Assembly: GCA_027923505.1 (NCBI GenBank)
Contig: BROI01000008.1
Location: 868,001 to 932,000 of the forward strand
DNA length: 64,000 nucleotides
Direction of reading: 5' to 3'
DNA from: Mayamaea pseudoterrestris
Lineage: Eukaryota
The translations under genes and the position numbers were made by a program. The stretch's first letter is position 1. Every line of letters begins with the position of its first letter. The notes beneath the pieces are model-generated. The model was not told the origin of the DNA and ran no database searches. It was given only the letters and a program-made list of their open reading frames with translations. Shown in pieces: positions 4,768 to 31,244 of this stretch.

Positions 4768-5730
4768 ATGTCACAACAACCATGTTTACCTTTACAATTA
4801 GGAAAAACTACAAAAGTATTTAGCGCCTCGACCGCCAAGTGTTTTGACAGCGTTGACATTCAAGCCCTGGACGCATCTGCATATCTTGCGATGGTTGTTC
4901 ACGAGTCCAGACACTTGCCTGATATATTCTTGTCTGATCCTGAACCCGATTTTGCATCCAAATCTAAGACAGTATCTAAGAGCCGAAACATGGCTCCTAT
5001 CGATGGTTCCGCTGCCTCATTGATGTACCTCGTTTCTGACAGAACAACGGTACGAGCACCACCCACGGCGGACCATTTACCAAAGCATACCGATAAGTGG
5101 GTCGATCAGACCACACTAAACTTTTCGGCATTAAGAGACCATTTAGAGACTTGGCATGAACAAGGGATTGGAGGAAAGGACACGGATCGACTTCCATTGC
5201 CAACCATGAATGACCGTCCTGGTTGGCACATATTTTGCGTGGGGATAGACGATGCGCGGGGCAATGAAGGTTCTTACTTTGACGATGATCATGCTACTGG
5301 TAAAACTATGTTAGGATTGGCGGATGATGCCGAGAATATAGCCGCATTGGAAGGAGACGACACACCATATTGGAAACGTCATTTACCGAGCCAAGGCTAC
5401 ACCCCAACAACCAGCCTGCTTCTACAGATGGACCAAGTGCTTGTGCGTCGAGTACTTAGCCATTTAATACACTATGTTCGAGAGGGATGGACAATAACGA
5501 ACTCGCAGCGTTCAACGTGGATATATGCTTTACTCGCTCGCTTGGAACTTCCCATTCATCGCGAAGATGCGGCTCTTTTGTTTGGATTGCTTAAATCTCT
5601 TGCCCAAACTCGCGGGATTATGGATGCTGTCAAGGACAGAGAGAAGTTGGCGAGAGTCAATGTCTTGATTACCGTCGTCGGGATATATTTTGAGCAAGGC
5701 GGAGGAGTCGGGGCACTCATGCGGCATTAG
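4768..5730 (+). CDS. GEMIN2: Gemin2 / SMN-interacting protein 1
   Basis: N-terminal YLAMVVHES..LPD and C-terminal WIYALLARLELPIH...NVLITVVGIYFEQ match the Gemin2 pattern. Confidence 0.75.
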   Translation: MSQQPCLPLQLGKTTKVFSASTAKCFDSVDIQALDASAYLAMVVHESRHLPDIFLSDPEPDFASKSKTVSKSRNMAPIDGSAASLMYLVSDRTTVRAPPTADHLPKHTDKWVDQTTLNFSALRDHLETWHEQGIGGKDTDRLPLPTMNDRPGWHIFCVGIDDARGNEGSYFDDDHATGKTMLGLADDAENIAALEGDDTPYWKRHLPSQGYTPTTSLLLQMDQVLVRRVLSHLIHYVREGWTITNSQRSTWIYALLARLELPIHREDAALLFGLLKSLAQTRGIMDAVKDREKLARVNVLITVVGIYFEQGGGVGALMRH

Positions 5731-24744: not shown

Positions 24745-27700
24745 TTAAATAAACAGCTCGAGGCTGGTCCGAGCGTAAACATTTTCTCCCTCGTTCTCGA
24801 TCAATGGATATCCAGCCACCAGCGCATCCGAATTGTAAATGTAGAGCGTGTTGAAAATCTTCCAAAACGTTTCACGAACTCGGCGAGCTGGATGGTACAG
24901 GCCTTGCAGAGTATACTGCAAAATGAGGTTCGGACCTAGCGCCACCATAAGGCCAGACACTGCATCCAGGACAGCTTGAATGACATGAGGACTCTCCTCA
25001 AAGATATTGGGCCACACGTAATTAAGCAGGTGAATGAGCGCATCTTCGCATCCGAGCCCAGCCACGCCCAACGACAAGTGCTTTACAATCGCTGCAGCAG
25101 TCTGACGATGTACTGGATCACGCTCCATGAGAGCATCTTCAAGCAGCGGCGTCACGGCGTAAACATAGTCCTTGCCCATAGCACCGATATATTCAAACAT
25201 GAAGCTCATCGCCTTGAGTACCCCATTTTGTATGTTAAGCTCTGGAACACGATACTCATTCATCAAAGCGGGAAGTACAGTAAATGGACCGCATGTTTCA
25301 GCGACAATAGCGATCGCCACTGTGGTGCACACTCGCATTTGGCGGTCCTGCACCTTGAGATTATTCAAAAGTGTGTGCAAGACATCCAGAGGGCCAATGG
25401 CCTTCGCTATGAATCCAAACGTGCTTACAGCCGCTCGTCGGATCGCCTTTTTGTGTGCCTTGAGCATCTCCAGTAACTCGAAACAAATGCGCATCCATTC
25501 CTTCGCCGACACATATTCGGCACCACGGTCGGCAATTCTTCCGACGAGATCAATCACATTCTCTTGCACTTTTTCGTGACGGTTGCGCAAGATGGGCGTC
25601 AGTCGAGGCAATAAGTCGCGAATCGGAGGGTTCATTTTCGTCATGCCGATGACAGTCACTATAGCGCGTAGCGCACCAAGAATGCTTCCGAGAACTTCGG
25701 GGTATTCCTCTCCCAGATATTCGTAGAGGACGACGCCCAAGTGCCCCATCAATTGCTCTTCGTCACATGCCTTCATAACGACAGCGATACGGCTGATCAG
25801 ATCGGCAGCTTGCATTCTGACCGATGCAGACTTGTTATTGAGACGCCACTTTATCGTCCCTGCAATCTGCTTTAGATATGGCTTGCACCGTTCCCCAAGA
25901 GCGCACACGACAATGCCAAAGCCGTCCAGCATGATCTCGCTCTCCTTGCCAATGTTCGTAACACTTGCGTCCACTGCCTGTTCTTGAAATGCATAGAGTA
26001 TTCCGTCAATCAAACGCTCCTCGAGTCGTTCGTCAATATCGCTTGAACCTAGACTTTCAACGACAGTCTTGATCGTCTCCATCACCATTCGACGGTACGG
26101 TTCAGAATCATCCTTCAAGTCATCGACTATGCGGACCACAATCTCCGATACTCCAACCTTGTTAGCCAGTTCGCAGGTAGTCTCGACAACTTGCTTATAA
26201 TTGCGTCGATCCAGCGCCATTCGGCGAATCCAAAAATTCCGAAAGAACTCTGGCAAAATCTCGGTTCGAATGTAATCGGGTTCAACGCCTGCAGTGGCAA
26301 CGCATTGTTGAATCACCTTGAGCACGATGCGCTTCATCTCTTCGTCCGGAGAATGAAATTCCCGCAGAAGTATCGGCATGACAAGTCGCGTGTAATGACT
26401 AGCGTAATTCTCCTCCATGAGCGGAATCACAAAGCCAATCGCCTTGAGAAACGCGGCTAGCGATTTACCCTGCTGCTCTAAAGCACCCTTCCACAGAGGC
26501 CGAATAACAGAGTCAAAGCTTTCAATGCCATATGGATAAGCGGCCTCTGCCAGAGCAGCACAAGTGAGCGCAGTCATGATCTTGACCTTCTGAATATCGT
26601 CAGTAAGTCCATGGCTGACAATCTCAACTAGCTCGCGGAGATAGGGTAAGACGGCGACCCCCATCAATAGAGCAATCTGCTGGACAACTTTAATGCCTGT
26701 ATGTCGAGCTTGCCATGACTTGCGAGACTGACAGACAGCCTTCAAAAATGGAAGCAGGGCGGGAACACCCAGCGCGCTAGCGACAACGGCAAACGCCCGA
26801 GAAGTGACGTTGCGAACGTATTCATCGGGACTATCAATATCCGGACGCATACAAGAAATCATTGTTGCCAGACCAGCAGCCTTTGCCAGATTGCTGATAA
26901 TCTCGCGGCCTTCGATCCGAGCGTAATAGTCTTCATCAATCAGCAATGGTTCAATTACAGCGAGAATTCTATGGACAAATGGGCGAACCAAATCATCGAG
27001 TTTGTACAGGACTCGGTCAATAACCTTTACCAGCAAGTGCCGTTCCTGATCTTCAAGCGTCGGACTCATAAGAAGCGGCAAAATTTGATTAAAAAGAGGT
27101 CCCGCGCCAAAGGATCGAGCCTTGTCAGTCATCTGGCGCAAAGCTGTCTTCCGTTGCGGCGGAGTGCCACTTTTAATTTTTAACAGAAGTGATAGTATCT
27201 GTCGGTCCCTAACCTCTTCCTTCGACAGCTTGGTTTCATCCACATCCTCCGTAAGCCTCCCAAAATATTGCATATCTTCTGGTTTTATATACGGGAGACT
27301 TCCAGCAATACCAGATTCATCTGCCGTTGCGGAAATGGGCACACCATATGCCTCTCTGATCTCTTGAATCGAAGCATCTTGGCGCTGCTCAATGGGCACC
27401 TCCATCTGAAAGCCAGCAGGCGTCATGCCAAGCGGCGTGGGCGTTGCTAAAAGGTTGCGACCCGGCGTTCGCAGCGGTACGTAGCCAGGTGGAGGTGCAA
27501 CAATCGCATAACCTTCCGCAGGAAGAATCGCATCCAACGCTGCAGCCGTCCATGGTCTGTTCCTCGACTCCATTTCCTTTTCCAAAGCCATTGACTTGTT
27601 CAACACCATGGGAGTCTGGCCACCGATACCAACACCAGCGCTAGGCGCCAATGGCGTCGCATCCCATCTACTCGTGCTCTTTCCGGCACCTCCTCCAACC

Positions 27701-28644
27701 AGAGGAGTCGCGGCAACATTCGATCCAGTGGCAAGAGGAGTTGCATCCCATTTCGAAGAAGTTTTCGCAGTAGCCAAAGGCGTGGCAGCAACTTTAAAGT
27801 CAGCTGCAATTGGGGTTTCATCCCATCGCTTTCGCGTCGTTTTGCCAGAAGCAGCTTGTCCAGCATTGCGATCCCACTTGTTCGAAACTACGGACGACTC
27901 TGTATCCGACACTGCAGCAATTATGTCATTTGGTTCATCCGTAGTGTCCCAGCGACGTTTACGACCCTTTGCTTCGTCGTTCTGAATGACAGACTCGTCG
28001 CGCTGATGGTTCTCTTCATCGTCCGTGCGATCCGGCAGCGATTCCTTGGCGAGAGCCTTTAGTAAATCATCCTTCTCCTTCTCCATATTTGCCTGCTGCA
28101 TAGCTTCTTGAAAGGATAGCCCATCCTCGCGAAGGACGCGGTCGTGTCGTCGCTTCTGATAGTCGGATTCTCGATCGCCAACCTTGGTGTTGACGAGGCC
28201 TGTGCCAGACATGGTATTCTTGAATGGATTGTCATGTTCTCCGACATCCTTATCATCCTGATTGAACAAGTAAAAAACAATGATACTGAGTGAGTCATCA
28301 TTAATTATTGAAAGAAACGAGAGCACAGACAGAATCAGACAAAATTTGTTCAAGCAATTCGCATCATTCATTCGCATTCCCTTTCCTCTACACCAACTTA
28401 CCATTCTCGCATGTTTCGTACTCGGATGACTGCTCACGCGGCCTTCATCCAGACCTTCATCATCTTCGTTATCAACATCGTCGTCTACTATCTCCTTGGC
28501 GTATTCTTCGTCAGCGCCGGAGGCAAAGATTCCGTCGTCGAATGCCACATTGGTTCCAAATCGAAGTCCGCCGCGGCCATCAGTGGTTGCTAGCGGCTGC
28601 GACTTGGAATTTTCGTCCGTCTTGTTCATTGTTGGCACGGGCAT
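24745..28644 (-). CDS. SF3B1: Splicing factor 3B subunit 1, 2 exons
   Basis: RWDETP/KWDATP ULM and TP repeats, [37 protein letters not shown] and HEAT repeats. In-frame 144-nt intron 28401-28258 (GTAAGT...CAG). Confidence 0.98.
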
Positions 28645-29289
28645 GACCGTTCACTTTAATATCTACAAGTGTCAGTGAAAGAGCAGAGAGGTGAGTGGCG
28701 GCAGCGGGCCTCTTCTGAGTTTCGTGTGTTGGTCCGTCATGGTGAAGCGTCGCCGCACTTTACAGTATCGTAGCGGTATCCAGCTTCCTTCTTTCGTGCT
28801 CTGCAGACCTTCCGTTTCATGCCCCGTCTGCCCAGCGTCCGTGGAAATGGCGGTTCGATGGGAGGCAGCGAGAGACGACGCTCACAATGGCTGTTGATTC
28901 CCTCACTGCAGGTATGTACGAGGTACTTGGTCGTCTCTTGATGCTTTGACTCCTGACGAGTGCAGGAAAGCTGCTGTATAGATTTATGCTGGATGCAACA
29001 AGTATTAAAGATCAAGAGAAGGGGCGAAAGGCGATGGTTTGATTCTCGAAATATTCTGGTTCCGGACCGCTACTCATCCTTTCAACACGATGTAGACGAG
29101 TCCCCTTCGTTGGCTTTGCCATCTAGAGAATGATTCGATTATGTTGCTTGAAAAGAACATCTTTGGAATATCGAACGTAAAATTTCGGTGTGTTTCTGAG
29201 CTCCATTTTGCAATGTGCAACTCACCATTACTTGCGTTCCATTTCGTTTCAGGTCCGAGCAACCCATTGTATACCAGCGATTTTACACC

Positions 29290-29683
29290 ATGATTCAAGT
29301 TTTCGTCAATACGACTGCTTACACGGTCGACCCTGCCGTCTCGGTTGAGTCCTTCAAGGCTCAGATTGAGAACAAGGAGTTCATCCCGTCCTCGCAGATT
29401 CGCCTCATGTTTGGAGGAAGAGTTCTCGAGGGAGGCTCCCTCGAGGCGTTTGGACTCGAGGAGGATGACGAAATTGTCCTCAGTGCCGAGGCCCCTGCCG
29501 GTATGCGCGGCAAGTGGCGTAAGAAGCGGTACGTGGTCTGGTTTGAATTTGAATTGTCTATTTGGACTGCTTCGTTCGCAGAGTATTATCCTCTCATCTC
29601 ACCCTTTATTACAATTTTGTGTAATTTACAGCATGCGCCGCCTCCGTCGTAAGCGCCGTAAGATGCGTCAACGTGCTCGTTAA
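29290..29683 (+). CDS. RPL41: Ubiquitin-like domain fused to 60S ribosomal protein eL41, 2 exons
   Basis: A 71-aa UBL (MIQVFV...FKAQIENKEFIPSSQIRLMFGGRVLE...PAG) is followed in frame by MRGKWRKKR|MRRLRRKRRKMRQRAR*. Intron 29529-29631 (GTACGT...ACAG). Confidence 0.92.
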
Positions 29684-29811
29684 GCAAACGAGGCGGATGG
29701 ACGTTGCTTCCGAGTGCACACTCGGCTTTTTACTACAAAAGTGTGGGAGTCATTGAGGATTAATATTCTACTTCTAGTTCAAAATGTTTGCTCTACTTAT
29801 TGATTCATGTT

Positions 29812-31062
29812 TCATAGTGGTACGTTATATATAGTTATGTCGTTTGATGTGTCGGCAACAAACAGAGCCGACGGGTAAGCAGCGTCGCGGCCACAGCTGC
29901 TCACCATCCAATTTGGCTTACCACCAACATGTTGCCACGTGAAAAGAGATTTGGGCTGGCCGAGAAAGTCATATTCATCATCTCTTCCATTGCCAGGAGA
30001 TTGTGCCAAGCTTGGAAACAGGTTGGTCGGATTAGTAGCTTCATCGCCGCAAAGCGACGAGCCCAAGTCCCATAGAATGATCTTCCCCTCGTTGCCGATG
30101 GAACAAAAGAGACGATCATGAGCTGATATATCGATATAACCATTGGGTTGCAATGATATTGGGCGTGTCCATTGGGGAAAAAGAACGGAAGCGACAGGTC
30201 CACTATGAATGTCCTCAAGCCGTGCTGCCAACGTCAAAGAATGATTGGCAGTGATTACATAAAGTGCGCAAGAACCATCACCCAGAGCTGCTGCGAGCAG
30301 TTTGCCACTGGGGCTCCAGGCCAAGCTATTTATCATTGGAGGATTGCATACATGGTGAGCTTCCGTCGATAGGGTTTGCACGCAGGCTTGATCCATTGGC
30401 TGTCTGGGTTTCGCTGTGTCCCAGAGTATAATGCGGCAATCAGTACCACCTGACGCAATCTGCAGAGCTCTCTGGTAGTTGGGCCGAAAGACTGCCGATG
30501 TAACAAGTGCCTGCTCATTATGAGTGAGAGTTGTAGTAGATTGAGTGTCACCCTCCTCGGAGACTGTGACGCGGCCTGCATCATCTGCAAATGCAATGCA
30601 GCGGCGATGTCGATCGTGACGGATGCTCGAACGAGAAATGCTATTGACGTCGTCCTCCGCGATGAATATTTGGTCACATTCACTCAATGATATCGTTGGC
30701 GATGTAGCTTTTCGAAGATCGTATTCGTAAACGATGGATCCTGCAGAAACGTAGACGGTGTAATCTCGAATGAATGTGGACGGTGATTCCTCCGTTCGAG
30801 CTGAATCAGGCTGGAATATGCGGCCAAACGATACGGATAGTACTTCGTTTGCTCCACCTTCCAGCAGAGGCATTTTGATGCATGCGGCGGCTCGTAGATG
30901 GTTGCGAAGATCCCAAAGTTGAGCTGTACCATCGGCGGAACCACTCAGCAGACATGCATGCTGCACTGAAATGGCTTCGTTCGCCAGGCTACTCGAGTGG
31001 TCTAGGCACGTCACTTGGCCCTGGTGCCCATGAATCTTTACCAATTGTAAGGCTGGATCCAT
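29812..31062 (-). CDS. WD40 repeat protein (WDR53-like)
   Basis: GHQGQVTCLD, LLSGSADGTAQLWD, ASGGTDCRIILWD, CNPPMINSLAWS. Confidence 0.8.
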   Translation of the reverse strand: MDPALQLVKIHGHQGQVTCLDHSSSLANEAISVQHACLLSGSADGTAQLWDLRNHLRAAACIKMPLLEGGANEVLSVSFGRIFQPDSARTEESPSTFIRDYTVYVSAGSIVYEYDLRKATSPTISLSECDQIFIAEDDVNSISRSSIRHDRHRRCIAFADDAGRVTVSEEGDTQSTTTLTHNEQALVTSAVFRPNYQRALQIASGGTDCRIILWDTAKPRQPMDQACVQTLSTEAHHVCNPPMINSLAWSPSGKLLAAALGDGSCALYVITANHSLTLAARLEDIHSGPVASVLFPQWTRPISLQPNGYIDISAHDRLFCSIGNEGKIILWDLGSSLCGDEATNPTNLFPSLAQSPGNGRDDEYDFLGQPKSLFTWQHVGGKPNWMVSSCGRDAAYPSALFVADTSNDITIYNVPL

Positions 31063-31244
31063 TGTAGCTGCTCCTATCTTTCCAAGCACTTGACATGGTT
31101 TTTGTTTTGCGGCACGCATGGTCGACGACAACAGTGCGACAAAAATGAGTGAGATTTAAAACCGTAGCGACATGAAAGAAGCGCGCCTCCGTCTCGTCCG
31201 CGGCCACGACGGCGCCGTTTTCTGGCATTTTGCAACGCTACAAC

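Follow-up and report, generated by a model that had tools for sequence, protein, structure and literature searches.

A two-exon gene of the diatom Mayamaea pseudoterrestris encodes a 96-residue protein in which a ubiquitin-like domain (UBL) runs directly into the ribosomal protein eL41. The UBL and eL41 are carried on one abundant spliced transcript. Judged from the sequences of its relatives, the fusion is conserved across the stramenopiles together with a Gly-Met junction between its two parts. The product is probably a cleaved precursor of eL41, like Ub-eL40, Ub-eS31 and FUBI-eS30, in which the domain would act as a carrier or chaperone in cis and not as a modifier.

Results

The gene and its product

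The gene lies on the forward strand at positions 29290-29683 of the window, by which we mean the whole 64,000-nucleotide stretch of DNA that was analysed. From the ATG at 29290, the frame MIQVFV...EAPAG runs unbroken into MRGKWRKK. This is the first in-frame ATG downstream of the stop at 29197-29199; 29150-29290 contains just one further ATG, at 29213 and in a different frame, and 29214-29289 holds none. Joined by their coordinates, the two exons (Table 1) give 291 nt, or 96 codons plus TAA, with the C-terminal end MRGKWRKKRMRRLRRKRRKMRQRAR. The intron splits codon 80, which is codon 9 of eL41, after its second base. Every element of the original prediction, a UBL frame leading into a complete 25-residue eL41 that is divided by an intron, is present in the sequence, and our recount returned the composition it had given: 12 D/E and 4 K/R in the 71-residue domain and 17 K/R in eL41. 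The product is letter-for-letter equal to an NCBI entry (P0004, 'hypothetical protein MPSEU_000501200 [Mayamaea pseudoterrestris]') whose record carries precomputed Pfam matches to PF00240 and PF05162. The eL41 part, to which PF05162 belongs, is a polybasic helix of 25 residues with the pattern MRxKWRKKR...RKMRQRxx. Mayamaea is a raphid pennate diatom of the class Bacillariophyceae. On the opposite strand the gene has a long frame to either side, at 24745-28650 (minus strand, 1301 codons) and 29812-31155 (minus strand, 447 codons).

Table 1. Features of the UBL-eL41 gene, in window coordinates.
Feature	Position	Strand	Evidence
5' leader, minimum extent, without AUG	29253-29289	+	X6 contig 29253-29418, depth 551
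Exon 1, 239 nt	29290-29528	+	Sequence
UBL (predicted beta-grasp), 71 codons, acidic, end ...EAPAG	29290-29502	+	Translation, PF00240, AlphaFold, Foldseek, BLASTP
eL41 codons 1-8 (MRGKWRKK) and the first two bases of codon 9, end of exon 1	29503-29528	+	Translation; PF05162 on P0004
Intron, 103 nt, GT..AG, GTACGT...TTACAG	29529-29631	+	Sequence and spliced X6 contigs
Exon 2, 52 nt: last base of codon 80, eL41 residues 10-25 MRRLRRKRRKMRQRAR, TAA	29632-29683	+	Translation
3' UTR, minimum extent	29684-29747	+	X6 contig 29631-29747

Expression and splicing

Four runs (X4-X7), from one study and one organism, cover the gene. They may derive from the strain whose assembly contains the window and, while they speak directly for this organism, they do not replicate the finding independently; we called them DNA-like or RNA-like from the pattern of cover. 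Three further runs, X1-X3 (share 0.05), were left out. X4 and X5 were DNA-like, with even depth (about 36-55 and 7-9, respectively) and contigs that span the intron. X6 and X7 were RNA-like, with zero cover in 29529-29602. Two X6 contigs joined 29389-29527 to 29631-29653, a skip of 103 bases with GT..AG ends at a depth of 788, and the splice predicted at 29529-29631 is thus observed as an intron of exactly that length. Contig depth over the coding region was 550-1170 in X6 and 120-570 in X7, whereas the neighbouring gene (29899-30000) had about 2. The X6 contig at 29253-29418 shows at least 37 nt of transcript upstream of the ATG and is continuous through the UBL part. RNA-like contigs are unbroken over 29253-29527, and transcripts do not start only at or after the ATG at 29503. 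The extents given for the leader and the 3' UTR are minima, as the contigs do not fix the true transcript ends.

Codon use agrees with the claim that both parts look like a highly expressed gene. The bias is strong in each of them (together Leu 6/6 CTC, Lys 7/7 AAG, Glu 8/9 GAG and Arg 13/14 CGT/CGC), and GC3 is 0.64 in the fusion gene, while the long ORFs on either side have 0.51 and 0.45. Two forms of the gene are expressed, and the five positions at which they differ (29419, 29439, 29442, 29469 and 29493) are all synonymous.

A few contigs depart from the window sequence. One contig each from X4 (DNA-like) and X7 (RNA-like) has the 93 bases at 29141-29233 replaced by a diverged block of the same length. 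The X7 contig extends through this block back to 28994, and may represent another allele, a longer leader or DNA carry-over. In one low-depth X5 contig, three bases are missing at 29521, in the AAGAAG Lys codons of eL41. The diverged block and the deletion are probably allelic variants or assembly noise.

The ubiquitin-like domain

Residues 7-65 match the ubiquitin family (PF00240) at 36.4 bits, above the curated cut-off of 25.4 (E 4.3e-9). In a HMMER search, the best sequence relatives in the PDB were all ubiquitin, with single chains at ~34 bits and E about 1e-7. BLASTP against a polyubiquitin gave 31% identity and a 5-residue gap that falls in the first hairpin, and the correspondence of QIRLMFGGRVLE with QQRLIFAGKQLE on which the domain had originally been recognised recurs in both the HMMER and the BLASTP alignment. 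In the latter, VLSAEAPAG lies opposite ubiquitin LVLRLRGG, R44 takes the place of K48, and an acidic residue (E/D) that of K63.

AlphaFold, run on 122 aligned sequences, predicted the structure with a pLDDT of 91 and a pTM of 0.65. The model has strands at 2-6, 9-13, 37-41 and 61-66, a helix at 19-30 and a long helix at 71-95 that corresponds to eL41. The top 50 Foldseek matches in the PDB were all ubiquitin or ubiquitin variants, at about 32% identity, and the target-normalised TM score was 0.77-0.89 for single ubiquitin chains, multi-domain entries and one outlier chain giving other values. The predicted fold thus matches the beta-grasp (beta-beta-alpha-beta-beta-beta) of ubiquitin, as had been expected.

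Five residues (E27, P33, L39, G49 and G71) are invariant over the 122 aligned relatives. These, together with the exclusively synonymous differences between the two expressed forms, point to purifying selection on the domain. Its acidic character is general: D/E number 7-14 against 1-5 K/R in all 27 named entries, and the domains of named relatives contain 1-4 Lys. The tail reads EAPAG in the window product and L/V-N-V-N-G-G in relatives, whereas ubiquitin ends in LRLRGG. The brown-alga and oomycete domains are 41% identical to ubiquitin, are 73-76 residues long and have GG directly before Met. Ubiquitin proper was ruled out for the window gene by the 31% identity, the hairpin gap, the tail AEAPAG and the replacement of Lys at the K48 and K63 equivalents. 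By these comparisons the domain is a derivative of ubiquitin from which the tail arginines and the chain-forming lysines have gone.

Distribution of the fusion

When the translation of exon 1 was used as a query, 11 of 11 candidates matched, at 57-100% identity, and some of them were transcriptome ORFs marked complete. When 3872 candidates were screened with a profile built from seven of these, 903 proteins matched at E ≤ 0.01, and PF05162 was present in all of the best 120 of these 903. With a brown-alga member as the query, 696 of 786 candidates matched at E ≤ 0.001. In a broader profile search polyubiquitins were dominant, and short single-domain fusions made up only 14 of the best 150 matches. 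The upstream frame is thus kept in hundreds of relatives, and the view that this is a genuine gene for a UBL joined to a ribosomal protein holds: it is conserved, highly expressed and of the same architecture in hundreds of proteins.

Most matches are unnamed metagenome proteins, and the range given here rests on entries named by their source. Among diatoms, the fusion was found in Seminavis, Nitzschia (two genes), Epithemia, Fragilaria and Cyclophora as well as in Cyclotella, Stephanodiscus, Thalassiosira, Skeletonema, Detonula, Chaetoceros and Stephanopyxis. The brown algae Sphacelaria, Scytosiphon, Discosporangium and Choristocarpus carry it, as do the other ochrophytes Tribonema, Chrysoparadoxa and Heterosigma; a xanthophyte and a raphidophyte are among the named non-diatom ochrophyte carriers. 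The oomycete carriers are Pythium, Phytophthora infestans (PITG_15069), other Phytophthora, Lagenidium and Thraustotheca. Atlas labels of 'Viruses', Uroviricota and Nucleocytoviricota rest on 3-10 members and were not counted toward the range. EukProt entries for the foraminifer Nonionella stella group with diatom-type sequences, one of them in a cluster with Thalassiosira, and a UniRef entry for Heterosigma akashiwo falls into a 90% cluster of Skeletonema, apart from the distinct Heterosigma entry P0358. Both the Nonionella entries and the Heterosigma entry in the Skeletonema cluster are likely to be prey or contaminant transcripts.

Variant loci

We fetched 22 loci (L001 and 21 others). Under the diatom eL41 pattern, 16 of them (L001-L016) read straight through KKRM, and the remaining six also continue through eL41, in one frame, as far as the stop. 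The family as a whole does not share the intron in eL41. The metagenome scan pattern requires a contiguous KKRM(R) and recovers only loci that lack the window's intron, and the counts give no estimate of its frequency. We had considered tblastn matches that end at residue 80 as a sign of the intron and rejected this, since all 22 loci read through. Several database gene calls (P0008, P0010, P0244 and P0265 among those inspected) depart from eL41 right after KKR, and one rejoins it later; they look like calls that ran on into an intron situated as in the window.

Two metagenome loci with 72% and 23% GC (L017:1501-1836 and L018:1489-1815, respectively) have a different arrangement. Their UBL ends in GG and is followed by a linker of 9-12 residues, which shares RYKKS, before an eL41 that starts MRWKW. 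A cut at GG would leave an N-terminal extension on eL41 in these loci.

L001 is an IMG/VR contig of 19,985 bp and 41% GC with dense intronless ORFs on both strands. Its fusion (4938-5261, plus strand) has a 75-residue UBL, 42% identical to the diatom domain, that ends in GG directly before a full eL41 (PF05162, E 2.5e-8). A ubiquitin-conjugating enzyme gene lies immediately downstream, and the other neighbours encode a thioredoxin, two RFC-like AAA proteins, DnaJ, a DUF72 protein and a TBP-like protein. The contig looks like a giant virus with a captured host UBL-eL41 gene. Atlas L41-fusion clusters labelled Nucleocytoviricota agree with this, but have only 8-10 members.

The junction between the domain and eL41

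We counted junction residues in a sample of 265 proteins shorter than 200 residues. Of these, 262 carry the motif KW[RK]KK and were counted; two fragments of our own and one KKN variant, itself with GG before Met, were left out. The sample was gathered by similarity and contains near-duplicates, with the window product in it twice. All 262 have Gly at -1 and Met, the start of eL41, at +1. Position -2 holds G in 166 proteins, A in 87, S in seven, T in one and V in one. Domain length goes with this residue: domains of 73-77 residues end in GG in 140 of 146 cases, whereas those of 70-71 residues end in AG in 80 of 110, with 21 GG and nine SG, TG or VG.

The window gene has Ala-Gly at the position where precursors of ubiquitin and UBLs have Gly-Gly. 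Among the 27 named entries, AG was found in all five from raphid pennates (Mayamaea, Seminavis, Epithemia and the two Nitzschia genes), of which we checked the class for two and presume it for the others. The other named stramenopile entries have GG without exception (22/22). The araphid Fragilaria combines a short domain with GG, and Cyclophora has a long domain and GG. The non-GG junction of the original prediction is therefore real in the window gene but is not a hallmark of the family. GG appears to be the general state and AG a derived one that, among named taxa, is confined to raphid pennates with a shortened domain. On the simplest reading, which draws on the named taxa and not on a tree, a fusion ending in GG came first, the first hairpin was then shortened within the pennates, and GG changed to AG in the raphids.

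Discussion

Comparison with known fusions

In the window gene a UBL lies directly N-terminal to a ribosomal protein, in one ORF and on one mRNA. Ub-eL40 (UBA52; UBI1/2 in yeast) and Ub-eS31 (RPS27A; UBI3 in yeast) likewise place a ubiquitin fold directly before a small basic ribosomal protein, and these genes too are highly expressed. Their domain is true ubiquitin ending in LRLRGG, whereas the one described here is 31% identical to it, five residues shorter, acidic, Lys-poor and ends in PAG, and its partner is eL41. For those precursors, a cis-chaperone role and obligatory removal are documented in passages of a 2021 review (PMC8122580).

The window gene would seem closest of all to FUBI-eS30 (FAU), by analogy of a diverged UBL fixed in a clade: in both, the domain joined to the ribosomal protein is a UBL other than ubiquitin itself, and the fusion is kept throughout a large clade. 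The FUBI domain has a GG end and is processed by USP36. In a protein language-model search, FAU/eS30 clusters ranked next after the L41-fusion clusters (scores 0.79-0.89), and we treat these matches only as leads. Membership in the FUBI-eS30 family was ruled out because the partner is eL41 and not eS30, a small-subunit protein (PF04758).

The Ubi3 of Giardia lamblia is likewise a ribosomal-protein fusion and, according to the review passages, is said to stay uncleaved (PMC8122580). Its partner is eS31 on the solvent-accessible small subunit, whereas here the Gly before the partner is invariant. The Emiliania huxleyi protein R1FF22, listed as 'Ub-eL41' in Table S2 of PMC8122580, has the same ubiquitin~Ribosomal_L41 architecture (PF00240 and PF05162), but is a single haptophyte census entry, likened to the window gene by its Pfam architecture.

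A probable cleaved precursor of eL41

We favour the cleaved precursor because the Gly-Met junction is invariant, the ancestral junction appears to be GG, and the features of a modifier have been lost; the cleavage, the protease and the carrier role are what we infer from this. An acidic, almost lysine-free beta-grasp domain would be translated first, followed in the same chain by the +17-charged eL41 helix. In cis, it would turn a 25-codon micro-ORF into an ORF of normal length and may shield, neutralise or solubilise the polybasic peptide before the cut. This would be made after the invariant Gly71 by a deubiquitinase or ULP-type protease, and the released eL41, with its normal Met1, would enter its rRNA socket (bridge eB14). 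After cleavage, the domain would probably not be used as a conjugated modifier.

A protease site under selection fits the junction, since Gly and Met are invariant and only small residues occur at -2. The brown-alga and oomycete forms, with GG before Met, have the layout of known cleaved precursors, so that the family would start out ubiquitin-like. In yeast, passages of PMC8122580 describe ubiquitin as a cis chaperone for eL40 and eS31, very fast processing of the ubiquitin-ribosomal precursors, and obstruction of assembly or function by uncleaved ubiquitin. The eL41 protein itself, with 25 residues of which 17 are basic, forms a single helix (passages of PMC9932298 and PMC13485352). Its place within the ribosome core is between h44 and h45, with bridges B2a-c and B3 alongside (PMC13485352). 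An 8-kDa domain on its N-terminus would have little room there and would be hard to fit.

Other readings of the junction and of the domain

With Ala at -2 the window product differs from all characterised Ub/UBL precursors, which have GG, and mutation of the terminal region of ubiquitin is how cleavage-resistant Ubi1 and Ubi3 are made (passages of PMC8122580). This would suit a domain that stays on, at least in the AG raphid pennates, giving a mature 96-residue protein with an acidic domain at or near the subunit interface. The natural non-cleaved Ubi3 kept in Giardia ribosomes, as the same review passages report, is a precedent, and the linkers of L017 and L018, together with archaeal eL41 proteins annotated as N-terminally extended (part of PMC9932298), suggest that extra N-terminal residues may be tolerated. 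We nevertheless regard a permanent domain as unlikely. All 87 AG forms have an invariant Gly at -1 and Met at +1, which a structural linker would not need, eL41 is buried in the core as described above, and uncleaved ubiquitin impairs the assembly of eL40 and eS31 in yeast (PMC8122580, in the passages cited). That the raphid pennates, with GG changed to AG and a shortened domain, gave up cleavage of the precursor in favour of a permanent domain is distinctly unlikely. If it were true, the eL41 of their ribosomes would bear an acidic domain with the ubiquitin fold at central bridge eB14, next to the decoding centre, where the domain could gate subunit joining or be a regulated, late-removed assembly checkpoint.

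The precursor could also be cleaved and the freed domain serve as a UBL modifier or signalling protein, in a two-product gene like Ub-eL40; a functional freed domain does not exclude cleavage. The GG end is kept in most lineages (166/262), the domain is conserved throughout the stramenopiles, and in L001 the fusion lies directly upstream of a ubiquitin-conjugating enzyme gene. Such a role is quite improbable given that the domain lacks the arginines of LRLRGG, has no Lys at the K48 and K63 equivalents, and shows AG, SG, TG or VG in place of GG in 96 of the 262 proteins, a change expected to impair E1 activation. It is highly improbable that eL41 is translated separately, starting at Met72 (AUG at 29503) through leaky scanning or on a shorter transcript, with the upstream frame separate or regulatory. 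In favour of this, Met72 is invariant (262/262), although old ubiquitin fusions need not retain the initiator Met of the partner. Against this, contigs are continuous at similarly high depth from 29253 through the domain into eL41, although there may be a minor short transcript. The eL41 AUG is unlikely to be reached by scanning, since upstream AUGs are not depleted: the window has two between the start and Met72, and each of 15 related loci has 1-10. The domain also evolves as a protein, with a conserved fold and only synonymous allelic differences. The chance that unrelated frames were joined by accident or by assembly is negligible; nothing beyond the small size of eL41 speaks for such an artefact, which is refuted by the observed splice and by the recurrence of the fusion across hundreds of independent assemblies and among transcriptome ORFs that are flagged as complete.

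Earlier reports and significance

The claim of novelty held only in part. The ubiquitin~Ribosomal_L41 architecture is already in Pfam, UniProt and NCBI records, and the 2021 review by Martin-Villanueva et al. speaks, in the passages concerned, of 'a few cases' of ubiquitin fused to eS8, eS19, uL1 or eL41 and calls them anecdotic (PMC8122580). A 2024 review repeats the mention of the eL41 fusion (PMC11354881). In the literature searched, with subscription journals and preprint supplements outside its reach, we found no paper characterising UBL-eL41, and nothing in print on its clade-wide conservation, its divergence from ubiquitin, its acidic and Lys-poor character or the change from GG to AG. 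Those passages of the 2021 review (PMC8122580) contain neither the stramenopile-wide family nor the divergence or the AG junction. The main text of Sibbald et al. (2019) on algal ubiquitin fusions does not contain L41, eL41 or RPL41, and a Phytophthora ribosomal-protein paper mentions only the L41 promoter.

In the usual view, Ub-eL40, Ub-eS31 and FUBI-eS30 are the conserved fusions and the others are anecdotal. UBL-eL41 is a further one, fixed across diatoms, brown algae, xanthophytes, raphidophytes and oomycetes, that evolved away from ubiquitin as FUBI did. It offers an independent natural experiment on why small ribosomal proteins of high basicity come fused to ubiquitin-fold domains. None of them is smaller or more basic than eL41, and the domain is without modifier features, which favours the idea of a cis carrier or chaperone. 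The raphid shift from GG to AG offers a concrete case in which to probe how specific the processing protease is, and the fusion may be of use as a phylogenetic character.

The family also corrects automatic database labels. UniRef names its members '60S ribosomal protein L41', and the automatic JGI name for many or most of them, 'small subunit ribosomal protein S27Ae', is a mislabel that gives the wrong partner.
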